From NCBI GenBank assembly GCA_018333955.1, contig JAGXSD010000042.1, positions 10,629 through 34,628 on the forward strand: a stretch of DNA of 24,000 nt, read 5' to 3'. The stretch comes from Erysipelotrichia bacterium (lineage in GTDB: Bacteria; Bacillota_I; Bacilli_A; Erysipelotrichales; Erysipelotrichaceae). The position numbers and the translations under genes were made by a program. The notes below the pieces were generated by a model that did no database searches, was not told the origin of the DNA, and saw only the letters and a program-made list of their open reading frames with translations. Of this stretch, positions 6,942 through 22,899 are shown in pieces; position 1 is the stretch's first letter, and every line of letters begins with the position of its first letter.

Positions 6942-8639
6942 TCACATCATGATTCTAAGTAATCCAAGTGTAATCACCCCTACTAGAAACAAAAGTGTAT
7001 ACTTCCAGCCCATGGATAAAAATTGAGTGGGTTTAAGTCTTCCGGCATTAAGTACAACAAGGTGAGTTTGATATCCTAATACATTCATAAATGAGGCACT
7101 TGCTAAGATGGCAATCATGAGCACAAGCACTCTAAACTCAACTTGTACCACGTCATTAAGCATTGCACTAAAACTTAACATCATGGTGGCTGCAACGCCA
7201 TTATTCATAACTTCAGTAAACATCATGGTGAGAAGCGCTATTGAAATCACAAAAGCCCAAAGTGGAATGTTTGTTAAAAATGAACCTAAATGATGACTGA
7301 GTTCTGCTTTAATGATTGGTGCTTGAAACACATGAGCCAAAACAAGTCCAGCATACAGCGACAACATTAGTTTAGGCTGTGATTCCACCTTAAGTGCTTT
7401 AAGTGACATGTCTTTATTGAGAACACTAAGCACAAGCAATATTGGCATGGATACCACATAGGGAACCCATTGAAATACACCCCCAATAATCGCAAAAACA
7501 AACAACACTGAAATAATCGTATTTTTGAAAGTAATTTTATCTGAAACACTATGACGTGAAACTTGTTGGAAAGCAGGATGATGTAAATCATCCTTGGCAT
7601 GCATGACAATAAGTACGGTATCCTTGGCCTTTAAGATGACATCTTGATATGTTCTGATTAATGGTTGACCATATCTTACAATCCCTACAATAATCCCATG
7701 AAGTTGATCTTTAAGTTTAATATCCTTAATGCTTTGATGAAAGTCTTGAATCACCATCGCCTCAACAAGATGAACTTCATCCATGACAGATTTCGATTCA
7801 ATCAAATCTAATCCGCTAAACTGCGTAAGGTGATGAAATAAAGCAACATTACCTCCAAAGAATAATTGATCATGAGCATGCAGGATGGTGTGTTCATTAA
7901 GTGGAAATACAGTTTCACCATGTCTTAATATCAAAGTCGCATACGATTGATTAAGATGCTGTGTGCTTGCTTCCTTAAGCGTTAAACCAATCAAAACTGA
8001 ATTTTCATTGATTTCAAATCCAATAAGATGATCGTGAAGTTGGGCATAGGTTACTTGAACTTGAGTCGATTTAGTTTTTCCTAAATCATGAAGTAACAAT
8101 AAGGTCGCTATCATGGTTAAGGGGAAAGCAAACACTCCAGTCTCAAAAAATCCCAGTGGTGGATATTGATGTTCGATTAACCAAGCATTGACTAATAGGT
8201 TTGTACTTGTCCCAATGAGGGTCAACATCCCTCCAAAAATACTGGCATACGATAATCCAATCCACCATTTGTGATGCGTCGTCTTGACCTTCTCATGAAT
8301 CATTGGAAGTAAAATCATGACCAAGGGAATGTTATTGATGACTGTGGAAAGTGTGATAATCAAGCAAAGAATTAAACTTGGATGAACACTGGCCACAGCT
8401 TTCATTTGAATCTTATAAATCCAAGGTTGACGCTTAATCACTCCACTCATGAGCACTAGAAAGAAAATAGTGAGTAAAGAAGGATTAAAGAGAAGGTTCC
8501 ACCAACTTATTAATGGAATCCACCCAATGAATGTGAAAAGCAGTGCGCTCACAAGCAAGAGTAAATGAGGAGGAATATTTTTAATATTCATCCATGCAAT
8601 CATGACAATAAAGTATATAAAGAGTCCTAGTAAGTTCAT
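6942..8639 (-). CDS. SLC13/ArsB-NhaD-superfamily anion permease with two central TrkA-C (RCK_C) domains (565 aa)
   Basis: Two membrane halves flank two soluble repeats (GFEINENSVLIGLTLKEAS...ILRHGETVFP...LHAHDQLFF and VEAMVIQDFHQSIKDIKLKDQLHGIIVGIVRYGQPL...ILKAKDTVLIV), which are typical TrkA-C inserts. Confidence 0.6.
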   Translation of the reverse strand: MNLLGLFIYFIVMIAWMNIKNIPPHLLLLVSALLFTFIGWIPLISWWNLLFNPSLLTIFFLVLMSGVIKRQPWIYKIQMKAVASVHPSLILCLIITLSTVINNIPLVMILLPMIHEKVKTTHHKWWIGLSYASIFGGMLTLIGTSTNLLVNAWLIEHQYPPLGFFETGVFAFPLTMIATLLLLHDLGKTKSTQVQVTYAQLHDHLIGFEINENSVLIGLTLKEASTQHLNQSYATLILRHGETVFPLNEHTILHAHDQLFFGGNVALFHHLTQFSGLDLIESKSVMDEVHLVEAMVIQDFHQSIKDIKLKDQLHGIIVGIVRYGQPLIRTYQDVILKAKDTVLIVMHAKDDLHHPAFQQVSRHSVSDKITFKNTIISVLFVFAIIGGVFQWVPYVVSMPILLVLSVLNKDMSLKALKVESQPKLMLSLYAGLVLAHVFQAPIIKAELSHHLGSFLTNIPLWAFVISIALLTMMFTEVMNNGVAATMMLSFSAMLNDVVQVEFRVLVLMIAILASASFMNVLGYQTHLVVLNAGRLKPTQFLSMGWKYTLLFLVGVITLGLLRIMM

Positions 8640-9334: not shown

Positions 9335-9913
9335 ATGCCTTTCTTTTCATTTGAAATTCATAACATTCTTTTTTATATCATTACTATTTTGTGGAATCTA
9401 GAATTTCTAATCTTTAGATCAAAGTATAAAGGGAATAACTACTCAGATAAACAATCCTTCAAAACTATTTTAATCGTAATTGTTACCATTATTGCAGGAA
9501 CCATTGGTTATAATCTCTTAGGTCTATTCACTTTACCTGAATATACCTATGTGTATTTTAATTATGCAGGGATAACTTTATATACCATTGGCATTATTTT
9601 GAGATACAGTGCAAGTATCACTTTAGGACGATATTTCACTCGCAATGTGGAGGTGTCTTCTAATCAAGAACTCATTTCTCATGGTCCTTATAAACTTTTA
9701 GCTCATCCTCTTTATTTAGGGTTATTCCTACTAGTATTAGCCGTCCCAGTGTATTTTGGGCAGTTAGTGTGGATTTTTGGGGCAATATTCTTTTTTGGAC
9801 GTGTCATATTGAATAGAATGAATAGTGAAGAAAAAGCACTAGAAGCATCTTTAGGAGATACTTATGTTAAATGGCGTTCAAAGCGTTATCGTTTTATTCC
9901 TTGGATGTATTAA
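9335..9913 (+). CDS. Isoprenylcysteine carboxyl methyltransferase (ICMT/PEMT)-family membrane methyltransferase
   Basis: About 5 TM plus the C-terminal block ELISHGPYKLLAHPLYLGLFLLVLAVPVYFG, characteristic of the ICMT/phospholipid methyltransferase family. AAAGGAG RBS. crtP follows 9 nt downstream. Confidence 0.7.
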   Translation: MPFFSFEIHNILFYIITILWNLEFLIFRSKYKGNNYSDKQSFKTILIVIVTIIAGTIGYNLLGLFTLPEYTYVYFNYAGITLYTIGIILRYSASITLGRYFTRNVEVSSNQELISHGPYKLLAHPLYLGLFLLVLAVPVYFGQLVWIFGAIFFFGRVILNRMNSEEKALEASLGDTYVKWRSKRYRFIPWMY

Positions 9914-9922
9914 AGAGGTCAA

Positions 9923-11410
9923 ATGAAAAAGAAAGCGATTGTACTTGGAGCAGGTCTAGGTGGACTTAGTGCCGCAATCTCATTGGCACAACTTAATGAA
10001 TATGAAATTCATGTCTTAGAAAAAAATTCACATCGTGGTGGTAAACTTAATATCATTGAAAAAGATGGATTTAAGTTTGATTTGGGTCCTTCAATTGTCA
10101 CTATGCCTTATATCTTTGAGAAACTTTTTACCATGCACGGAAAGCGAATGGAAGATTATCTAATCTTTGAGCCTGTTTTTCCTCATTGGAGAAATTTCTT
10201 TGAAGATGGCACCATCTTAGATATCACTTCCACACTTGATGAGATGCTTAGTAATGTAACTTTAACATCTAAAGATTTAGAAGAACTTAAAGCTTTCTAT
10301 GATTACAGTGAAAAATTATACAAGTTTTCCAATGCGGTTCTCTTTGAAAATCAAAGTGAGCGAAAACTTGATACAATGAAACACTATCCACTCACACACA
10401 TCATTTCTGATTCAGACATGTTCCATACGATGGATGAAGGAGTAAGAACGTATATCTCTAATCCATATCTTATTGATATTCTTAATTATTTCATTAAATA
10501 TGTCGGTTCCTCTCCTTATGATGCCCCTGCAGTTTTAAATCTTCTTCCTTATATTCAATGGAAGTTTGGATTATGGTATGTGAAAGGTGGATTATTTGAA
10601 ATCTCGAATGCCTTGACAACCTTAGCCCATGAACTAAACATTACATTCCATCATAACGTTCAAATTGTGGATGCTAAGATGGATTCAAAAAAGATAGCAG
10701 CTCTAATTAGTCAAGATGGTACCCATTATGAAGCCGATTTATTCATCTCAAACATGGAAGTCATCCCATTCTATAAATTCATTACCAAAGAATCTTCATC
10801 ATTTCTTAAACCTTATGAAAAGAAATATGGTCCCGCATGTTCGGGTTTTGCACTTCACTTAGGCGTGAATAGAACATATCCTCAATTGGCTCATCATAAC
10901 TTCTTTTATTCTAAAAACTCAAAACAAAACTTTGATAATATCTTTCATCACAACATCCTGAATGAAGATCCTACGATTTACTTAGTTGCTCCTATGAAAT
11001 CTGATCCAGATTTAGGACCTCAAGGAAGTGAAATCATTAAGATTCTTCCTCATATTCCAGTAATCGATCCAAATCATCCATTCACAGATCAAGATTATGA
11101 AACCTTTAAACACCATGTCCTTGATAAACTAGAACGTATGGGACTGACTGATTTAAGGAAGCATATTGTGGTGGAAGAAACATGGACACCTCACACCATC
11201 TTAGAAGCTTATCAATCTAATCAAGGATCTATCTATGGGGTTGTCAGTGATAAAAATAAAAACATGGGATTTAAGACACCCAAGTTTAGTTCTAAATACA
11301 AGAACTTATTCTTTGTCGGGGGAAGTGTAAATCCTGGGGGTGGTATGCCTATGGTGATTCTTTCTGGTCAACAAGTTGTTGAGCAAATCAAAACCAAAAT
11401 AAAAGAGTGA
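9923..11410 (+). CDS. crtP: CrtP (CrtNb)-type 4,4'-diapocarotenoid oxygenase, FAD-dependent CrtI family
   Basis: GAGLGGLSAA dinucleotide-binding site. Long blocks match my recollection of S. aureus CrtP: DLGPSIVTMPYIFEKLF, ISNPYL..L.YFIKYVGSSPYDAPAVLN, ISNMEVIP, YPQLAHHNFF, DPTIYLV, LDKLERMGLTDLRKHI, FFVGGSVNPGGGMPMVILSGQQV. Confidence 0.8.
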   Translation: MKKKAIVLGAGLGGLSAAISLAQLNEYEIHVLEKNSHRGGKLNIIEKDGFKFDLGPSIVTMPYIFEKLFTMHGKRMEDYLIFEPVFPHWRNFFEDGTILDITSTLDEMLSNVTLTSKDLEELKAFYDYSEKLYKFSNAVLFENQSERKLDTMKHYPLTHIISDSDMFHTMDEGVRTYISNPYLIDILNYFIKYVGSSPYDAPAVLNLLPYIQWKFGLWYVKGGLFEISNALTTLAHELNITFHHNVQIVDAKMDSKKIAALISQDGTHYEADLFISNMEVIPFYKFITKESSSFLKPYEKKYGPACSGFALHLGVNRTYPQLAHHNFFYSKNSKQNFDNIFHHNILNEDPTIYLVAPMKSDPDLGPQGSEIIKILPHIPVIDPNHPFTDQDYETFKHHVLDKLERMGLTDLRKHIVVEETWTPHTILEAYQSNQGSIYGVVSDKNKNMGFKTPKFSSKYKNLFFVGGSVNPGGGMPMVILSGQQVVEQIKTKIKE

Positions 11411-11426
11411 GATATCACTCTTTTTT
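11401..11426. terminator. Bidirectional hairpin shared by the convergent crtP and 11415..11933 genes
   Basis: AAAAGAGTGA-GATA-TCACTCTTTT. The stems contain both stop codons (TGA 11408..11410 on plus, TGA 11417..11415 on minus). Confidence 0.55.
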
Positions 11427-11933
11427 AATCCAAGGACTGAAGTATATAGGACTATGTGAAGCTACTTTATAAAATAAAACAATGATAAGCGCAATAAAAT
11501 CCCAAGTCATTACATAGACAAACAAATCACTTTGATAAGCTTGTCGATACACACTCCAATCTCCAAAAATCAAGGCCCATAGCAACATTAGGGTTAGAAT
11601 GATATCGATTGATCCTAATAGAAAAAATGAATATTTTTTTAAAGGCTGAGGTTTACTTCTAAAAAGAAATTCTAAAGGAAATAATACAAATCCACCTAAT
11701 CCAAATCCTAATAAAGTAAGCATACTTTGCCACCATGGCTTCTTATCATTGATAGAAAGAATTAAAAAATACATTGGAATAAGTCCTAAAGCATTAAAGA
11801 CAAACCATAAGGAAGGATCAAGGTTTAAACTAAACACTTGATTTAAGAAATCACTTGATGCTCCATTGAGTGAAGCATTGATTGTAACCATCACTAGCAC
11901 AATCCAAATCAATAGTGGCACTCGTCGTTTCAT
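11415..11933 (-). CDS. Uncharacterised small membrane protein (172 aa, about 5 TM), last gene of the ABC1-kinase/CrtN-paralogue operon
   Basis: Its start overlaps the upstream stop (ATGA, 11933..11930). It is hydrophobic throughout. I recognise no family. Confidence 0.6.
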   Translation of the reverse strand: MKRRVPLLIWIVLVMVTINASLNGASSDFLNQVFSLNLDPSLWFVFNALGLIPMYFLILSINDKKPWWQSMLTLLGFGLGGFVLFPLEFLFRSKPQPLKKYSFFLLGSIDIILTLMLLWALIFGDWSVYRQAYQSDLFVYVMTWDFIALIIVLFYKVASHSPIYFSPWIKKE

Positions 11934-13417
11934 TTTAAGTCATCCTTCAAAAGTTGGGTACTGATGAGTGCTGATTGATAGATGGTGGGTAATCCACTTC
12001 CAGGATGAGTTCCTCCACCCACCAGATACAAATTAGGGATATCATTAAAGCGATTATGAGCTCTAAAATACAATAATTGATCAAATGAATGAGCCATATT
12101 AAACGTTGCTCCTAAATAAACCCCGAAATCATCACGCCAGTCAAATGGTGTAATGACTTTCATGGCTTGTATATGCTTTGTGATATCTTTACATCCAGCT
12201 CGCTCCTCTAAAAATTGAAGTACACGTTGAGTATAGTCTTCTTTAAGAACGTTCCAATCAATATCAGCGAGTGTATTAGGAACAGGAACTAAGACATAGA
12301 GTGCGCTATGCCCAACAGGTGCTATTGAAGGGTCAAGCTTCACAGGATTATGAACATAGAAACTTGCATCTGGGGTTAATACTAATCGCTCAGTCATATC
12401 GAGTACATTACTGCGATAATCTTCGGAGAAGATTAGATTATGATGATGAAGATGCTCATATTGAGTATCAAGACCTAGATAAAGCATAAAAGTTGAACAC
12501 GAATAATTCTTTTTACTAAGCTTTTTATTGTTCCATGAAGGACGATGTTTTTCATCGACTAATTCTTGAATACTAGTTGCAAAATCTCCATTAAGAATCG
12601 CTCCATCCACATCAATCTTCTGCTCATTAACAATTATTGAAGTCACTCTTTGATTCTCAATTTCAAGTTGATTGACACGCGCATTAAAGTGAAAGGTTGC
12701 CCCAAACGATTCGGCTTCTTCCTTCATGGCTTGGGCTAATGCATTTAATCCTCCCTTCACATGAAATAAGCCATAGGCATGTTCCATGTAGGAAAGAATT
12801 GAGAATGCACTAGGGCACTGCCATGGTGACATACCTAAGTATTTTGCTTGAAAAGCCATTGCATATATAAGTTCTTCGTCCTTAAAGAAACGTTGTAATC
12901 TTTGGTATAAAGATCTGAATGGATCTAGGTATGGAAGTCCTGTCACAACATCAGGATGTAAATAATCACTAATCTTAGTGAATGGCAGTTTCAAAACCTT
13001 TGAAATCGCACTAAATCGTTTGCCTTCTTCTTTCAGATATTGATCATATCCTCGCTCATTTCCTGGGAAAACACGAGATATTTCTTCTCGCATTACACTT
13101 GGATTGCTACTAGGATAGATTTTCTTATGCTTAAAAATCAGTTGATATAAAGGATCTAGTGGGATAAGGGTGACTTTATCGTCAAGTTTTCGATTCACCT
13201 TTGCAAAGACTTCATCCAGTAAAGGTTTATATAAAAAGAATGTTGGTCCAATATCAAAATGGTAGACATCCTCCAATGTTAAGCGAGCGTTGCGACCTCC
13301 TACGTGAGGTTTTGCTTCATACACATGGACATCGTATCCATCATGGGCTAATAACATCGCCGCTGCAAGTCCACCTGGACCAGCTCCAATAATCGCAATC
13401 TTTTTCTTACTTTCCAT
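11930..13417 (-). CDS. Third phytoene-desaturase-family FAD oxidoreductase (CrtN/CrtI paralogue, possibly CrtNc-like), 495 aa
   Basis: IAIIGAGPGGLAAAMLLA...VGGR Rossmann motif, FDIGPTFF, KGGLNALAQAM, and C-terminal LYLVGGGTHPGSGLPT. The likely start MESKKK at 13417 is preceded by AAGGAG 7 nt upstream and overlaps the kinase gene by 11 nt. Confidence 0.75.
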   Translation of the reverse strand: MESKKKIAIIGAGPGGLAAAMLLAHDGYDVHVYEAKPHVGGRNARLTLEDVYHFDIGPTFFLYKPLLDEVFAKVNRKLDDKVTLIPLDPLYQLIFKHKKIYPSSNPSVMREEISRVFPGNERGYDQYLKEEGKRFSAISKVLKLPFTKISDYLHPDVVTGLPYLDPFRSLYQRLQRFFKDEELIYAMAFQAKYLGMSPWQCPSAFSILSYMEHAYGLFHVKGGLNALAQAMKEEAESFGATFHFNARVNQLEIENQRVTSIIVNEQKIDVDGAILNGDFATSIQELVDEKHRPSWNNKKLSKKNYSCSTFMLYLGLDTQYEHLHHHNLIFSEDYRSNVLDMTERLVLTPDASFYVHNPVKLDPSIAPVGHSALYVLVPVPNTLADIDWNVLKEDYTQRVLQFLEERAGCKDITKHIQAMKVITPFDWRDDFGVYLGATFNMAHSFDQLLYFRAHNRFNDIPNLYLVGGGTHPGSGLPTIYQSALISTQLLKDDLK

Positions 13418-14621
13418 ACACCATCTCCTTAAACTCCTCAATAAATTGACCCACTTCTTTCATAAGCACAGAATCAGGATTTCCTTTAAGTACAATACCA
13501 TCCATATACATATGAGACTTAATAATCGCAAACATGCCTTTCTCAAATTCCATGCCTGATTCAACCCCTAATTTAATCGTCTGCATCATCTTTTTAGTTA
13601 ATGATTCCTCAGACACACTTTTCCCTTCAAAATCTTTGTATAGTTCTTTTAAACCTTCAATATAGCGATCAAGTTTCTTGCCTTCAATGCCTTTAAACGC
13701 CATTTCATTGAGTGAGCGCGCACATCCTTCATAGTTAGCATTGGATAAATTTGCCATAAAATTGAATAAACCAAATCTAATTTTGTCATCCACATGGGCA
13801 ATCGCGCCGGTATCAATAAAGTAAAATCGGGAATCCTTGTATATCATATTTCCTGGATGTAGATCCCCATGAAATGTCCCACTATGATACATATAAAAAC
13901 CATGAAGGCGGAATATTTCAAGTAAATCATCATTGCTTAGCACCTTTAATGGAAGAATCGCATCCACGGTTGGACCATCTAAAAACTCAGAGACAAGGAT
14001 TTTTTCACTGGATAGAGATTCATAGATTTTTGGAAATCCTAGTCGAGATAAATCAAATTTGTCTTTGTTTTGATAATATATTTCCCTAAGAATTTTGCCA
14101 TGAGCAATCTCATTGCGTAAATCAAGTTCGGCTAAAGTATACTCTTTAATATATTCAATGATTCCAATTGGATCTGCCACTTTAGCTAGCTTAGGATAAA
14201 AGAAGATTGCAATCCTCATTAAACGATCAAGTTTACGAACATCTTTTTCAAAATCTTTGGTGAAATCTTGTTTAATGATTTTTATAACAACCTCATCTTT
14301 GTTTTTAAGCCGTGCGCGATGAACTTGCCCTACCGAAGCACTGCCGATAGGATTTGGATCTATCCATTCAAATTGCTCTTGCCAAGACGCATCTGTAAAA
14401 TCATGAATAAGTTTAAAAACATCTTCTGAAGGAAGAGGTAGCGTTGAACTATATAACTGGGCTAAATGAGTGCATTGTTCATGGCTCAAGAAATCAACTC
14501 GAAGAGCGAAGGTTTGAGCTATTTTGACAGCTAAAAGACCTTTGCGCTGTATCGCTTCAAGGTCTGCTTTCTTCTTTGAAAAAATCATGCTCATAAGATG
14601 AATAAAACTAATTGCATTCAT
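13407..14621 (-). CDS. ABC1/UbiB/AarF-family atypical protein kinase, soluble (404 aa)
   Basis: VKIAQTFALRVDFL (KxGQ-like), IGSASVGQVHRARL, VVIKIIKQ (catalytic Lys), ELDLRNEIAHG, ILVSEFLDG, FHGDLHPGNMIY and YFIDTGA. The start is ATG 14621, with AAAGGAG 7 nt upstream; the track's TTG at 14645 is less likely. Confidence 0.8.
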   Translation of the reverse strand: MNAISFIHLMSMIFSKKKADLEAIQRKGLLAVKIAQTFALRVDFLSHEQCTHLAQLYSSTLPLPSEDVFKLIHDFTDASWQEQFEWIDPNPIGSASVGQVHRARLKNKDEVVIKIIKQDFTKDFEKDVRKLDRLMRIAIFFYPKLAKVADPIGIIEYIKEYTLAELDLRNEIAHGKILREIYYQNKDKFDLSRLGFPKIYESLSSEKILVSEFLDGPTVDAILPLKVLSNDDLLEIFRLHGFYMYHSGTFHGDLHPGNMIYKDSRFYFIDTGAIAHVDDKIRFGLFNFMANLSNANYEGCARSLNEMAFKGIEGKKLDRYIEGLKELYKDFEGKSVSEESLTKKMMQTIKLGVESGMEFEKGMFAIIKSHMYMDGIVLKGNPDSVLMKEVGQFIEEFKEMVYGK

Positions 14622-14680
14622 GCCTAGACTCCTTTTAAAAATCAACTAAATCAAGTGTATCATATTCATTGAGCCCAATT

Positions 14681-14719: not shown

Positions 14720-15505
14720 TTATGGTTGCATGGCCCCAAAGAGGACTAACCAAGCTAGGACTGATTTTGCGGCTAAAGAAAGCACAATGTAGGTTCTTTC
14801 CCCATACAAATAATCTTTCCATTTTCCAACACCTAAATATTGAAGAATCATGTTAATTGGGAATGTATTAAATGCTACAAAGTAAGTTCCAACAATCGCC
14901 CAAACAAACCAAGGAATTTGATCCAGTGTTGCACTTGATCCACTCATGTACATAATAATAGCAATCCATGGTGCTAATCCCGCAACACTACCCCAAATAA
15001 ATGGTCCCCAGTTGACATTCTTTTTATCGACTCCTGCATTCAGTAATTCCATATCTAATCCGAATAAGTTCATGGATGCATTGATTAGGAAGATTAAGAT
15101 GAGGGTCACCACATCATAAATACCAAATAATGTTGCGATTAATACAATCATAATGGATGATGATAATGCATATTCAAACCATCTGAATTGGTTTACACCA
15201 CGCTTTAAATCATTGGTATAACGATCTTTTGATAATACAATGAGAAAGTGAGCAAAAGCAGAAATCAGTAAGAATGATGAGACGAGGACTGCGAACGGTA
15301 AATCAAATAAATCTTTAGTGGCCACTGCTAGACTCATGGTGGTGACGTCAAAGAATTGATAGGTTTGTGTGATGGTTGGTGTAAAGCGTGCTAAACGTTC
15401 AAATCCAATCGTCGCTAGAAATAACATCCCTAATCCTTGAACTAAATGGAAGAAACCCATAATTAAATTAAATCGTCTTAGTTTGAAAAAATTGTCTTGA
15501 GTCAT
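14720..15505 (-). CDS. Heliorhodopsin (7-TM retinal-binding photoreceptor with inverted topology), 261 aa
   Basis: Blocks match the heliorhodopsin family as I recall HeR 48C12: GFFHLVQ, AFAHFLIV, FRWFEYALSSSIMIVLIA (counterion Glu), INASMNLFG, and GERTYIVLSLAAKSVLAW (Schiff-base Lys, codon 14767..14765). A KLRRF basic cluster precedes TM1. The start is ATG 15505, with AAGGAGAAGG 5 nt upstream. Confidence 0.9.
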   Translation of the reverse strand: MTQDNFFKLRRFNLIMGFFHLVQGLGMLFLATIGFERLARFTPTITQTYQFFDVTTMSLAVATKDLFDLPFAVLVSSFLLISAFAHFLIVLSKDRYTNDLKRGVNQFRWFEYALSSSIMIVLIATLFGIYDVVTLILIFLINASMNLFGLDMELLNAGVDKKNVNWGPFIWGSVAGLAPWIAIIMYMSGSSATLDQIPWFVWAIVGTYFVAFNTFPINMILQYLGVGKWKDYLYGERTYIVLSLAAKSVLAWLVLFGAMQP

Positions 15506-15530
15506 AACCTTCTCCTTTTCGGTTAAGACT

Positions 15531-15559
15531 ATTTTAGATGAAGTCATCCATGAAAACAA
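15531..15559 (-). promoter_or_regulatory. Candidate dedicated promoter of the heliorhodopsin gene
   Basis: Minus strand: -35 TTGTTT (15559..15554), 17-nt spacer, -10 TAAAAT (15536..15531). It is preceded by a short GTTAAG-GCA-CTTAAC hairpin (15574..15560) that overlaps the upstream stop codon. Confidence 0.45.
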
Positions 15560-18962: not shown

Positions 18963-18990
18963 CAAAATAAAAACCTCAAAATTGAGGTTA
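18963..18990 (-). terminator. Rho-independent terminator of the crtM operon
   Basis: Minus strand reads AACCTCAA-TT-TTGAGGTT followed by TTTATTTTG. The stop codon 18990..18988 lies in the stem. Confidence 0.6.
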
Positions 18991-19785
18991 GCGAACAAAG
19001 GTATGAATAAGTGGAGTAAATATGGAAATGGTAATCATATTTGATAGAAAATTGACCATATGATTATCCATCCAAACGACACCCGAAACAAGTATATCAT
19101 TGGAATGTTGCATCATCTCAACAAGTTCATGACTGGCGGTTTTAAACTTAGCTTGGAATAATTCTCCTAGAATTGAATCCATAATTGATCCACCAAATCC
19201 AGCAAGTGTGGTTAATGAAAACAATGTTAAAGTGAGAAATGTCCATCCCGAGTAAGAAACTAAGACAGGGAGTGCTATGAGTGTAATAAAGAGTGATCCA
19301 AACCAAGAAGCAATAAGCCCTAACCAAGTCACTCCACCAGATAAACCTGATTGAATATGATTGCGTTTGATAAGCGTCCAAGGGGTCTCATAGGATAATG
19401 AACCTATCTCTGATGCCCATGTGTCCGACGTTGCGGCAGCCATGGATATGATACCAAAACATAAAATCCAAATCGAAGGACTTAAGTAATACCAGACACT
19501 TGCAACCCCTAGCATACTTCCATTCGCCACAACATTCACCCAAGATCGTGGCTCATGATCTTTAACATAGGGTTTAATATTGGGTATAAATTGAACAAGC
19601 ACTTTGCTGATGAGTAATGATGAAAACAAGAATGACATCATCAAAATATAAAAGATTGGATGTCCAAATCCTAAGACAGTAAAACCAAGCACAAAAGAAG
19701 CAATCGCGCCTGAAAGAGTTAATTTATTCTTTATGAATAATCCCCAACTGATGAGAAGATTAAAAATCAATGAAAACAGAAGCAT
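18988..19785 (-). CDS. DUF92/TMEM19-family membrane protein (family of the plant VTE6 phytyl-phosphate kinase)
   Basis: VVANGS, SDTWASEIG, SGLSGGVTWLG and GFGGSIMDSILGELFQ match the DUF92 conserved blocks. Its start lies 1 nt after the upstream stop. Confidence 0.75.
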   Translation of the reverse strand: MLLFSLIFNLLISWGLFIKNKLTLSGAIASFVLGFTVLGFGHPIFYILMMSFLFSSLLISKVLVQFIPNIKPYVKDHEPRSWVNVVANGSMLGVASVWYYLSPSIWILCFGIISMAAATSDTWASEIGSLSYETPWTLIKRNHIQSGLSGGVTWLGLIASWFGSLFITLIALPVLVSYSGWTFLTLTLFSLTTLAGFGGSIMDSILGELFQAKFKTASHELVEMMQHSNDILVSGVVWMDNHMVNFLSNMITISIFTPLIHTFVR

Positions 19786-19786
19786 A

Positions 19787-20446
19787 TTACACCAACATCA
19801 ATAGATAGCTTAATAGTGAAGCACCTAAAGGTAAAGTAATATTATCAAACCCATCTTTAGTGTAAAGTTCAAGTGCTGCACTTACAACACCAACACAAAG
19901 TGCTTTGACACCCCACCATGCATCACCCATAGAAGCGAACACAAATCCTGAAATCGCGAAACCAAAGAAAAATACCATCAGAGATCCTTCAATGGATTTA
20001 AAACCAGATCCAATCTTAATCTTTGTATTTCCAAACTTCTCTCCCACAACCGCTGCAAAGCCATCACCATACCCCATGGTGAGTATTCCAATCGCTCCAA
20101 TGGCTTCTAATCCACGTGTGAAGGTCACAAGCGTTAAGATAAGCAAGGATATGACATAATACACCGTGCCTAAGTCTTTCTTTGAACCATCACGCTCCAT
20201 AGCTTTAAAGGTTTGATTTTTATATGAATACGTATTGATGATCACAAAAGCAGCTGGAGTAATGGCTGCCATCCAAACATTATCAAAAAAGAACATCGCA
20301 ATAAACCACCAATTCGACACCATAATATGAATAAACTTTCGTGAAGATTCTCCGTTGAAGATTTTCTTCGCAGAAAGTACAGTACTAATCCCAATAATCA
20401 CAAAGATATACGCAAATGAGACGATAAGACCATAAACATTATTCAT
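19787..20446 (-). CDS. CTP-dependent polyprenol kinase family protein (VTE5 phytol kinase / dolichol kinase / farnesol kinase family)
   Basis: SRKFIHI, GYGDGFAAVVGEKFGNTKI....FKSIEGSLMVFF and DNITLPLG are the family signature blocks. Its start overlaps the crtM stop (ATGA 20446..20443). Confidence 0.75.
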   Translation of the reverse strand: MNNVYGLIVSFAYIFVIIGISTVLSAKKIFNGESSRKFIHIMVSNWWFIAMFFFDNVWMAAITPAAFVIINTYSYKNQTFKAMERDGSKKDLGTVYYVISLLILTLVTFTRGLEAIGAIGILTMGYGDGFAAVVGEKFGNTKIKIGSGFKSIEGSLMVFFFGFAISGFVFASMGDAWWGVKALCVGVVSAALELYTKDGFDNITLPLGASLLSYLLMLV

Positions 20447-21303
20447 AAACTGAGTTGTGTCCTTTCTAAGGTTGCTTTTTTAATCAACTGATGAACTTGA
20501 TTTTGTAATGCAATGAAATCCTTAACTTTACAGCGCGTACTTAAACAATCATAGTGATTTTCTCTTACTGCATTAAGGATACCTCGATAGTATACAATAG
20601 CTTGCGTAATCGCAACAAGAGCATCTTGATCATAGTATTTCAAATCTTCAATCGCATGATCATAAAACTTAAGGGCTAAACTCGCAAGATGTTCCCACAC
20701 CTTTATGAATGAATCATTCACTTTCTTGTCTTGAATGGCATGAATAATCTCATCATTGAGGAGCGATTGCGGTAGATAAATTCTGTTTTTTTGATGATAA
20801 TCCTCACCAACATCACGTAGTATGTTCGTAATCTGCATAGCATATCCTAATTCAATGGCACTTTGTTCGATACGTTGATGATGTTGGGTTGCTAGTATTG
20901 GTAATAACATAAGTCCTACACTACTCGCCACATGATAACTATACTTTAATAATGCTTCTTCATCCTTGATGCCTTGAAAGTGGTTGTCCATTTCTTGACC
21001 AATAATCATATCTTTAAATGGTGTTAATGGAATATTAAAGCGTTGTATGGTATCTGACAAAGCCCATAATATCGGATGATTGTCATTCATGGATTCTAAG
21101 TGATCGAGTGCCGAAGCAAATTCATGAAGTTTGTCTATATCTTGAAGTTCATCTATTGCATCATCCACTTCACGACAAAAACCATACACTGCGAATACTC
21201 CTTGACGTTTATGAAGGGGTAGATCTTTAAACGCCATATAGAAGGATTTAGAGTGTTTTTGAATAATCTTTTCACATCGGTGATAGGCTTGACTCAATTT
21301 CAT
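20443..21303 (-). CDS. crtM: 4,4'-diapophytoene (dehydrosqualene) synthase, squalene/phytoene synthase family
   Basis: KHSKSFYMAF, VYGFCREVDDAID (first Asp-rich motif), and NILRDVGEDY (second). The size and blocks match S. aureus CrtM as I recall it. The C30 versus C40 assignment rests on the co-occurring CrtN/CrtP. Confidence 0.8.
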   Translation of the reverse strand: MKLSQAYHRCEKIIQKHSKSFYMAFKDLPLHKRQGVFAVYGFCREVDDAIDELQDIDKLHEFASALDHLESMNDNHPILWALSDTIQRFNIPLTPFKDMIIGQEMDNHFQGIKDEEALLKYSYHVASSVGLMLLPILATQHHQRIEQSAIELGYAMQITNILRDVGEDYHQKNRIYLPQSLLNDEIIHAIQDKKVNDSFIKVWEHLASLALKFYDHAIEDLKYYDQDALVAITQAIVYYRGILNAVRENHYDCLSTRCKVKDFIALQNQVHQLIKKATLERTQLSL

Positions 21304-21309
21304 ATCAAA

Positions 21310-21318
21310 AGTATAGCA
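21310..21318 (-). promoter_or_regulatory. Extended -10 TGcTATACT 6 nt upstream of the crtM ATG, a leaderless candidate
   Basis: Minus strand reads TGCTATACT-tttgat-ATG. No SD lies within 20 nt. Confidence 0.4.
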
Positions 21319-21323
21319 TAGCC

Positions 21324-21343
21324 CTTGTCTCTTGTCTTACAAT
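21324..21343 (+). promoter_or_regulatory. Tandem CTTGTCT-CTTGTCT repeat abutting -10-like TACAAT of crtN
   Basis: cCTTGTCTCTTGTCTTACAATagactcaGGAGAaatgtATG. The repeat occupies the spacer of crtN and the -35 area of crtM. Confidence 0.35.
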
Positions 21344-21360
21344 AGACTCAGGAGAAATGT

Positions 21361-22899
21361 ATGAAAAAAGTGATTATTGTTGGGGCTGGAATTGGTGGCC
21401 TTGTAAGTGCTATAAAACTGAAACATCATGGATATGATGTCACGATTATTGAGAAGAATGAGCGAATCGGTGGAAAGATCAATCAAATAAAAAAAGATGG
21501 ATTTACCTTTGATATGGGTCCTACGATTGTGATGATGCCTCAACTTTATGATGAGGTTTTTAAATATGTCTTTCGAAATCCTGAAGACTACTATACAAAA
21601 ACTCAACTCAATCCAATTTATAATGTCTATTTTTCTAAAGAAGACAAAGTTGAGGTGAATACAGATTTAGTGCATCTTACCAAATTTCTTGAAGGCATGA
21701 GTGAACAAGAAGCATCTGGATATTTTAACTATCTTAATGATATTTATCGCCGATACATAATTGCGAAAGAACATTTCTTAGAAAAAACATTTAATAAGGC
21801 GAGTGATGTTTTAAACTTTAAAACCCTTCTTAATGGATTTAAGTTAAAAACCTTTGATACTGCATATCATTCAGTATCTAAGTTTGTGAAGAATGAAAAA
21901 CTAAGAAAACTACTCAGTTTTCAAACGTTATATATTGGAATCTCACCTTATGTAGGACCTTCGATTTACTCCATTATTCCTATGGTTGAAACTTTATATG
22001 GTATATGGTTTTTTAAAGGTGGAATGTATGGCTACATTCAAGGACTTGAAAAACTCATTCAAGAAATGGGTATAAAAGTCATCTTAAATACAACGGTCGA
22101 TGAAATCTTTATTAGTAATTTGAAAGCTAAAGGGGTGGTCATTGGTGAAGAGATCTTATGTGCTGATATCGTGATTAATAACACGGATTTCCCTTATGCA
22201 ATGAGAGAACTGATTAAGAACGAAAAGCATCGCCCTAAATACACCAACAAAAAACTTTCAAACATGGATTACTCATCCTCTGCGTTTATGATGTATTTGG
22301 GTCTAAACAAGAAACTAGATCATCTCAATGTTCATAATTTATACTTGTCCCCAGATTTTGAAGGAAACATCAAAGATATCTTTAGTGCTAAACTACCCCC
22401 TACGCCATCCATGTATTTCTATGTTCCTTCTAAACTTGATGAAAGTCTTGCCCCAGAAGGACATGAAGCGCTATACATTCTTGTCCCTGTTCCTAATCTA
22501 AAAGGATTTCCACACACTTGGGATGACAAACTCATTGCATCCTATCGCAAAGAAATCTTTGATCGCATTGCGAGTGAAAACATTATTGAAAATTTAAGTG
22601 ATCATATCGTCAGTGAAACCATCCTTACACCTCTAGATTGGCAAAAACAAGTTCATGCCCACTATGGAGCAACCTTCGGTCTTGCGCCAACATTAAGACA
22701 AAGTAATAACTTCAGACCTCAACCTATGTTTAAAGGAATCAAACATTTCTATCATACAGGCTCATCAATCCATCCTGGAGCTGGAATTCCAATTGTCATG
22801 ATGAGCGCTCAGTTATGCGTCAATGAAGTTTTAAAATATGATCCTAATGGAGGGTCTTTTGCATGCAAAGTTTATGCACAAGAATATGAAAACGCTTAA
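21361..22899 (+). CDS. crtN: 4,4'-diapophytoene desaturase
   Basis: Blocks match S. aureus CrtN as I recall it: VIIVGAGIGGL, KKDGFTFDMGPTIVMMP, KLLSFQTLYIGISP..GPSIYSIIPM.E, FKGGMYG, YSSSAFMMYLG, LAPEG, IVSETILTP.DW, and HPGAGIPIV. Confidence 0.85.
   Translation: MKKVIIVGAGIGGLVSAIKLKHHGYDVTIIEKNERIGGKINQIKKDGFTFDMGPTIVMMPQLYDEVFKYVFRNPEDYYTKTQLNPIYNVYFSKEDKVEVNTDLVHLTKFLEGMSEQEASGYFNYLNDIYRRYIIAKEHFLEKTFNKASDVLNFKTLLNGFKLKTFDTAYHSVSKFVKNEKLRKLLSFQTLYIGISPYVGPSIYSIIPMVETLYGIWFFKGGMYGYIQGLEKLIQEMGIKVILNTTVDEIFISNLKAKGVVIGEEILCADIVINNTDFPYAMRELIKNEKHRPKYTNKKLSNMDYSSSAFMMYLGLNKKLDHLNVHNLYLSPDFEGNIKDIFSAKLPPTPSMYFYVPSKLDESLAPEGHEALYILVPVPNLKGFPHTWDDKLIASYRKEIFDRIASENIIENLSDHIVSETILTPLDWQKQVHAHYGATFGLAPTLRQSNNFRPQPMFKGIKHFYHTGSSIHPGAGIPIVMMSAQLCVNEVLKYDPNGGSFACKVYAQEYENA

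Follow-up and report, generated by a model that had tools for sequence, protein, structure and literature searches.

The crtM-type synthase gene of an Erysipelotrichia bacterium, predicted to encode a 4,4'-diapophytoene (dehydrosqualene) synthase, is followed directly by two genes for membrane proteins: a putative cytidine triphosphate (CTP)-dependent prenol kinase, here called K1, and a putative prenyl-phosphate kinase of the DUF92 family. The three genes lie in a stretch of 24,000 nucleotides (contig JAGXSD010000042.1 of assembly GCA_018333955.1, positions 10,629 to 34,628), hereafter the window. They constitute one predicted transcription unit, the form taken here by a cassette, (crtN)-crtM-K1-DUF92, that is widely conserved. 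K1 and the DUF92 protein may form a two-step module, coupled with crtM, that converts a prenol to its monophosphate and then to its diphosphate and thereby tops up the pool of farnesyl diphosphate (FPP); this reading is given about an even chance.

The first-pass annotation of the window had described three minus-strand open reading frames (ORFs), chained by an ATGA overlap and a one-nucleotide gap and closed by a single terminator. All of these are present in the sequence where it had placed them (Table 1), as is every motif that it had quoted, namely RKFIHI, GYGDGFAAVVGEKFG, KSIEGS and DNITLP in K1 and DTWASEIG and GGSIMDSILGE in the DUF92 protein. The terminator hairpin (AACCTCA-ATTT-TGAGGTT, 7 bp, at 18989-18972) stands immediately past the DUF92 stop codon and is followed by a T-rich tail; its folding energy is -9.4 kcal/mol (z = -3.5), a value equalled by none of 200 shuffles, and inside crtM-K1-DUF92 the scan found nothing terminator-like that carried a T tail. 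Since the genes are translationally coupled through the overlap and the one-nucleotide gap and share this single terminator, they are read as one unit. The start codons of crtM and of the divergent crtN are separated by 57 bp (21304-21360), a spacer that contains the promoter-like site, and both promoters must therefore share sequence with one another or extend into the genes. The G+C content of the window is about 36%; the stretch matches contig JANJVZ010000058.1 of the metagenome-assembled genome GCA_024709795.1, and among named relatives the nearest are Erysipelothrix/Erysipelotrichaceae metagenome-assembled genomes.

Table 1. Features of the crtM-K1-DUF92 unit and of its surroundings (positions in the window)
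Feature	Position	Strand	Size and evidence
crtM-type synthase, 4,4'-diapophytoene (dehydrosqualene) synthase, first gene of the unit	20443..21303	-	286 aa; PF00494 SQS_PSY, E 1.5e-61
K1, SEC59/DGK1/VTE5-like polytopic membrane protein and putative CTP-dependent prenol kinase	19787..20446	-	219 aa; homologues, motif, fold
DUF92 / VTE6-family membrane protein, putative prenyl-phosphate kinase	18988..19785	-	265 aa; PF01940, E 1.7e-51
crtM/K1 stop/start overlap, ATGA	20443..20446	-	sequence read directly
Spacer of one base between K1 TAA and DUF92 ATG	19786..19786	-	sequence read directly
Intrinsic-terminator-like hairpin and T-run closing the unit	18963..18989	-	terminator scan and folding
Promoter-like site 5' of crtM, AAGACA-17-TATACT with TG	21310..21338	-	consensus scan, 9/12 matches plus TG; weak
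Divergent crtN-type (CrtI-family) desaturase, partner of crtM	21361..22899	+	512 aa; TIGR02734 crtI_fam, 430 bits
Heliorhodopsin	14720-15559	-	PF18761, E 3.5e-91; 3.4 kb from DUF92
ABC1/UbiB-type kinase	13407-14645		
CrtI-family oxidase	11930-13441	-	
ORF overlapping the CrtI-family oxidase at 11930-13441	11415-11933		172 aa; no family match
CrtI-family oxidase	9923-11410	+	
ICMT/PEMT-type methyltransferase	9335-9913		

The association of crtM with K1 is strongly non-random, as revealed by two gene-neighbourhood surveys. In the forward survey, a K1 alignment was searched against one genome per GTDB species, which gave 80 loci with a K1 of 44-85% identity; their six-frame ORFs were searched with the proteins of the window and neighbours were taken within 10 kb. 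The immediate upstream co-oriented gene of K1 is crtM in 33 of the 80 loci (30 of the 74 with enough upstream sequence), and crtM was never found elsewhere within 10 kb of K1 in any of the 80. In 25 loci, crtN stands next to crtM-K1-DUF92. In 67 of the 77 informative loci, DUF92 lies directly 3' of K1; a fusion of the two accounts for at least three more. The gaps are mostly of -14 to +41 nt between crtM and K1 (53 loci, with a 4-nt ATGA-type overlap in 12) and of -4 to +25 nt between K1 and DUF92 (77 loci); since such tight junctions recur in other loci, the chaining seen in the window is not due to chance. The reverse survey started from 80 metagenome loci around CrtM relatives, 77 of them informative. 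K1 is directly 3' of the crtM relative in 20 of these, with crtN upstream in all 20; it is present in 16 of the 24 loci that have a closely related crtN and does not accompany any of the 43 crtM relatives that lack crtN beside them.

The crtM-linked loci belong to Bacillota (Erysipelotrichaceae, Tissierellales, Clostridium, Desulfosporosinus and Acetobacterium/Eubacteriales), Mycoplasmatota (Acholeplasmataceae and Mariniplasma), Thermotogota (Petrotoga and relatives) and Spirochaetota (Sphaerochaetaceae). Carriers that can be cultivated include Acholeplasma equifetale ATCC 29724 (L070), Soehngenia longivitae (L041) and Acetobacterium wieringae (L081). The K1 tree mostly tracks taxonomy, and the presence and absence of crtM are intermixed inside clades. 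A mobile-element origin was considered and rejected, since a tblastn search of 72,556 plasmids gave no match to K1.

K1 and DUF92 are also frequently found as a single protein. At E<=1e-3, an exhaustive HMMER search led to 2,120 representative clusters. Among the best 150, about 47 have a length of 455-532 aa, and each of the ten long representatives that were tested is a K1::DUF92 fusion. Fusion proteins, of about 470-530 aa, are common (P0190, P0192, P0194, P0195, P0208, P0222, P0255, P0287, P0298 and P0327). Fusion ORFs of about 480-500 aa are carried by at least seven loci (L044, L047, L049, L078, L119, L122 and L149). Such fusions occur in Candidatus Saccharibacteria, of the candidate phyla radiation (CPR), and in Tepidanaerobacteraceae, and some of them sit behind crtN-crtM. 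This fusion pattern is a strong argument for joint action of the two proteins. Fusions of a COG0170-like with a COG1836 domain are known in archaea (e.g., Mbar_A3310 of Methanosarcina barkeri), in which the two domains follow each other in the K1-DUF92 order and each is related to the CdsA cytidylyltransferase superfamily; they were discussed for glycosylation and lipid carriers, and no link to a carotenoid synthase was reported (PMC5898192).

The identification of the first gene as crtM, proposed in the first-pass annotation, is borne out by its PF00494 match and by its best solved relatives, CrtM 8is6 (1.6e-60), 5iys and the Staphylococcus aureus CrtM 2zco (8e-35), which are all C30 enzymes. 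The Asp-rich motifs DDAID and DVGED align with those of S. aureus CrtM. In the same way, F25 of the window protein ("SFYMAF") aligns with F26 of the S. aureus enzyme ("SFSYAF", 2zco), and this Phe is invariant across nine aligned CrtMs from cassettes. Directed-evolution work on CrtM indicated that F26, a bulky Phe, restricts the enzyme to C15 substrates. To judge from these CrtM relatives and from the conserved F26 position, the window synthase looks C30-type; its NCBIfam scores cannot tell HpnD, CrtB and CrtM apart. The squalene route through HpnCDE was rejected: SQS_PSY is represented by one gene only, and the oxidase next to it is of the CrtI/CrtN type (430 bits), HpnE scoring 38 bits. The genes crtM and crtN that Eubacterium limosum carries were shown to make 4,4'-diaponeurosporene (PMC11611032), and Acetobacterium, another member of the Eubacteriaceae, has the cassette (L081).

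The third gene had been assigned to the VTE6 family, and this assignment stands. Its product matches PF01940 with 175.4 bits (cut-off 27.5) over residues 10-252 of 265. The gene later named VTE6 is At1g78620. COG1836 is equivalent to pfam01940 (PMC5898192), and At1g78620 is a plant member of COG1836, with a predicted role in phytol-phosphate metabolism (PMC3223725). The score against TIGR00297 (83.2 bits) is under the equivalog cut-off of 205.85, and the window protein is of a divergent subfamily; TIGR00297 is a family label that JGI still gives to DUF92 homologues. Residues D121 (DTWASEIG) and D203 (MDSILG) are invariant in the DUF92 alignment (A2); the Asp pair of COG1836 was described as equivalent to the metal ligands of CdsA (Makarova et al. 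2015, PMC5898192), and the correspondence is taken from that paper. The AlphaFold2 (AF2) model has a predicted local distance difference test score (pLDDT) of 88, and its top four fold matches in the PDB are TmCdsA, weaker than those of K1; the only match of the DUF92 profile among PDB sequences is a spurious nucleoporin. The idea that DUF92 always accompanies K1 was rejected, since DUF92 genes of Bacillaceae adjoin a 5-formyltetrahydrofolate cyclo-ligase gene without K1. For instance, in Parageobacillus and Bacillus mesophilus (L085:4439-5783 and L086:4439-5786), DUF92 overlaps the 3' end of this gene, an unrelated context.

For K1, indirect lines point to the SEC59/DGK1/VTE5 group: the names of its homologues, PF01148 matches, an invariant R-K-x-x-H motif and a predicted CdsA-like fold. 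The homologues, 651 in number, are up to 100% identical to it and occur on many contigs; their source names include "SEC59/DGK1/VTE5 family" and "diacylglycerol/polyprenol kinase family", JGI calls them "phytol kinase" and some sources use "phosphatidate cytidylyltransferase". PF01148 (CTP_transf_1) matches 3 of 22 homologues of 50-85% identity, the best with an E of 9.1e-8. Residues R36, K37, H40, D128, E193, D201 and N202 are invariant in the K1 alignment of 22 homologues. In the Plasmodium prenol kinase PfPolK, a "charged clamp" R-K-x-x-H (R29, K30, H33) was proposed to hold the phosphates of CTP (PMC10849223), and it is reproduced by R36-K37-x-x-H40 of K1. The AF2 model of K1 has a pLDDT of 88 and its four best PDB fold matches are TmCdsA chains; the profile of K1 gave no match among PDB sequences. 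The position of CdsA as the leading PDB fold for both K1 and the DUF92 protein agrees with the link between the COG0170/COG1836 families and CdsA that Makarova et al. obtained with HHpred (PMC5898192).

In the proposed pathway, the first step, from a free all-trans prenol to the monophosphate, would be catalysed by K1, probably with CTP as donor, and the DUF92 protein would then add the second phosphate to give the prenyl diphosphate, the two most likely acting in succession. The product in this operon would most likely be FPP, the sole substrate of the C30 synthase CrtM, so that we infer farnesol as the prenol. The pair would replenish or recycle FPP once the carotenoid branch is switched on, its expression being coupled with crtM transcription and translation.

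This proposal follows the logic of VTE5 and VTE6 in plants and cyanobacteria, which belong to the families in which K1 is tentatively (COG0170-type) and DUF92 firmly (COG1836) placed and by which an isoprenoid alcohol is converted to the monophosphate and then to the diphosphate for a downstream prenyl-consuming pathway. Unlike VTE5 and VTE6, the bacterial genes are found in non-photosynthetic hosts, in an operon and translationally coupled with a C30 synthase, and are frequently fused; their likely substrate would be the C15 farnesol instead of the C20 phytol. FOLK of Arabidopsis and PolK of Plasmodium falciparum are small polytopic CTP-dependent kinases, acting on farnesol and geranylgeraniol, and K1 resembles them through the published PfPolK clamp motif. 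No second-kinase partner was identified for these enzymes, whereas K1 has a putative second kinase adjacent or fused to it. The classical C30 operons (crtOPQMN of S. aureus, crtMN of Lactobacillus plantarum and E. limosum) likewise have a CrtM with the F26 equivalent beside CrtN, but prenol-kinase genes are not described there, whereas K1 and DUF92 stand behind crtM here.

Several observations weigh against a farnesol-salvaging role tied to crtM. Some of them concern the K1 assignment, which is the weak point of the family evidence. The first-pass annotation had named K1 as a CTP-dependent polyprenol kinase family protein, which the homologue names, the clamp motif and the tentative CdsA-like fold favour, but an assignment of both proteins by hidden Markov models (HMMs) succeeds for DUF92 only: the K1 of the window has no Pfam match even at E<=10 and no NCBIfam match. 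The fold matches between K1 and TmCdsA have E values of 0.035-0.17 despite a probability of 0.98 for the best three, and all PDB fold matches of the K1 and DUF92 models are above E 0.01. An hhalign comparison of the K1 and DUF92 profiles is not significant (E 0.056, probability about 1%), though GDGFAAVVG aligns with SDTWASEIG. The other observations concern gene content. In 47 of the 80 K1 loci there is no adjacent crtM, and to our knowledge the classical crtMN operons of S. aureus and L. plantarum function without such kinases. In an Erysipelothrix metagenome-assembled genome whose K1 is 85% identical (L005), crtM is decayed, with fragments at 7485-7934 that correspond to residues 1-76, 97-117, 216-247 and 249-270 and an internal deletion, while crtN, K1 and DUF92 are intact. 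In three loci (L053, L059 and L077), heliorhodopsin adjoins K1-DUF92-photolyase and there is no crtMN. Furthermore, in some Erysipelotrichaceae and Sphaerochaetaceae, a tocopherol-cyclase-like gene lies directly upstream of a K1-DUF92 pair lacking crtMN, on the same strand. The pairs without adjacent crtM imply a role that needs no adjacent crtM and a substrate that need not be farnesol.

K1-DUF92 is therefore best described as a self-standing two-gene module that is often, and not always, attached to crtMN and is not carotenoid-only; its invariable part is the pair, to which crtMN is an accessory. The claim that the two kinases are dedicated to C30 carotenoid synthesis was thus too strong, given that crtM does not adjoin the pair in over half of the cases, that crtM is decayed beside an intact pair and that other partners exist. 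In L007, both crtM and DUF92 have been lost.

Among the other partners, brought out by an unbiased clustering of the neighbours, a protein of about 320-330 aa matching PF14249 (Tocopherol_cycl, E 1e-15) and without NCBIfam match neighbours K1-DUF92 in 21 of the 80 loci. Its gene is found in L009, L011, L032, L046, L037, L048, L060, L063, L040, L043, L059, L065, L066, L073, L077 and L081 and, among the metagenome loci, in L092, L100, L105, L106, L108 and L114; there is none in the window or in L001. VTE1-, VTE5- and VTE6-like genes thus cluster in non-photosynthetic bacteria. Carotenoid hydratase or cyclase activity and chromanol formation are possibilities for this neighbour. A DNA photolyase gene (PF00875) is located directly 3' of DUF92, apparently in the same operon, in 17 loci, mostly from Acholeplasmataceae (e.g., L043:11449-12849, L053:2752-4158 and L092:8283-9683). 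Adjacent heliorhodopsin genes occur in 12 loci of the forward survey. In eight loci (L040, L043, L065, L066, L073, L075, L092 and L114), heliorhodopsin is divergently adjacent to crtN-crtM-K1-DUF92, a pattern seen in Acholeplasmataceae.

These partners bring in a possible, although rather unlikely, alternative in which the same prenol and prenyl-phosphate kinase chemistry would serve another substrate (geranylgeraniol, phytol or other) and a product other than a C30 carotenoid, for example an isoprenoid lipid, chromanol-like or of another kind, to whose synthesis the tocopherol-cyclase-like neighbour would contribute; the adjacency to crtM would then reflect a shared light and oxidative-stress regulon. 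The 47 pairs without crtM, the persistence of the pair beside the crtM pseudogene of L005 and the PF14249, photolyase and heliorhodopsin neighbours would all suit it, and the characterised VTE5 and VTE6 use phytol (PMC9782597). However, wherever crtM is found within 10 kb it immediately precedes K1, co-oriented and often overlapping, which is tighter than a shared regulon needs. A UbiA-type prenyltransferase, required for a chromanol, is absent from the recurrent neighbours, and the tocopherol-cyclase-like gene present 3' of DUF92 within crtN-crtM-K1-DUF92 operons (L105, L106 and L108) fits carotenoid modification.

It is improbable that the two proteins do not act on prenols at all, being instead CdsA-like cytidylyltransferases or a DGK1-like diacylglycerol kinase that would remodel membrane lipids upon carotenoid insertion. 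Solved structures that resemble either model are all cytidine diphosphate-diacylglycerol synthases, PF01148 is a cytidylyltransferase family, and the homologue names "phosphatidate cytidylyltransferase" and "diacylglycerol/polyprenol kinase" used by some sources point in the same direction. Against this, the R-K-x-x-H clamp and the overall size of K1 fit the prenol-kinase branch (PMC10849223), JGI places the homologues as phytol kinase and VTE6, a characterised phytyl-phosphate kinase, is a member of the DUF92 family. Moreover, consecutive and frequently fused enzymes suit a two-step phosphorylation better than lipid remodelling.

The cassette might also supply an isoprenoid chromophore or antenna to heliorhodopsin, as do the carotenoid/retinal clusters beside proteorhodopsin genes; the tocopherol-cyclase-like gene, heliorhodopsin, crtN-crtM-K1-DUF92 and photolyase would then constitute a dedicated heliorhodopsin-pigment pathway, fed partly from salvaged prenols. 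Such a pathway would explain the pigment source of heliorhodopsin bacteria without known retinal genes. It is consistent with the eight divergent arrangements, with the three loci where heliorhodopsin adjoins K1-DUF92 alone and with the heliorhodopsin gene of the window. Nevertheless, we regard it as highly improbable: an ionone ring would require an end group that C30 diapocarotenoids do not have, the recurrent neighbours include no cleavage oxygenase, most cassettes have no nearby heliorhodopsin gene, and the nearby carotenoid and photolyase genes have already been interpreted as photoprotection (PMC8612252). Lastly, chance adjacency or spurious ORFs, for which the lack of an HMM match for K1 speaks and nothing further, are refuted by the surveys, with 651 K1 homologues, a gene order kept across four phyla and two confidently predicted folds.

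The VTE5-VTE6 pathway of plants and cyanobacteria and the archaeal COG0170-COG1836 fusion are already known; for the presence of the pair in crtM operons, we found no published description. The first-pass annotation knew of no description of this arrangement in a non-photosynthetic monoderm. No account of K1/DUF92-type genes in crtM operons was indeed found in the open-access literature, an earlier account elsewhere being possible, and the E. limosum crtMN study makes no mention of such genes (PMC11611032). The term monoderm is too narrow, because the cassette also occurs in Thermotogota and Spirochaetota, and the fusion of the two domains was known from archaea. According to reviews of 2022 and 2026, the known salvage genes for farnesol and geranylgeraniol come from photosynthetic organisms and Plasmodium only, and the second kinase for these two alcohols is still missing (PMC9782597, PMC13022625). 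K1-DUF92 is a widespread and easily assayed bacterial candidate for a salvage pathway that has been the object of a decades-long search for genes, and it would overturn nothing. As the pair is located directly behind an FPP-consuming and colour-producing enzyme, pigment could serve as a read-out of both steps, and the operon could be a ready-made part for channelling prenols into terpenoid production. Its wide occurrence in anaerobes, wall-less Mycoplasmatota and CPR bacteria raises the question of which free prenols such organisms meet.

The segment 9335-14645 is a second carotenoid block of the window, with two CrtI-family oxidases, a methyltransferase and an ABC1/UbiB-type kinase; in plants, ABC1 kinases regulate tocopherol cyclase. 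Photolyase-related genes lie just outside the window, and the locus is part of a light and oxidative-stress island that includes them, heliorhodopsin and the CrtI-family genes. FeoB is split on the minus strand (759-2752) into two overlapping ORFs, one with FeoB_N (2171-2752) and one with Gate/FeoB_C (759-2201), which could be due to a frameshift, to the gene being a pseudogene or to misassembly.

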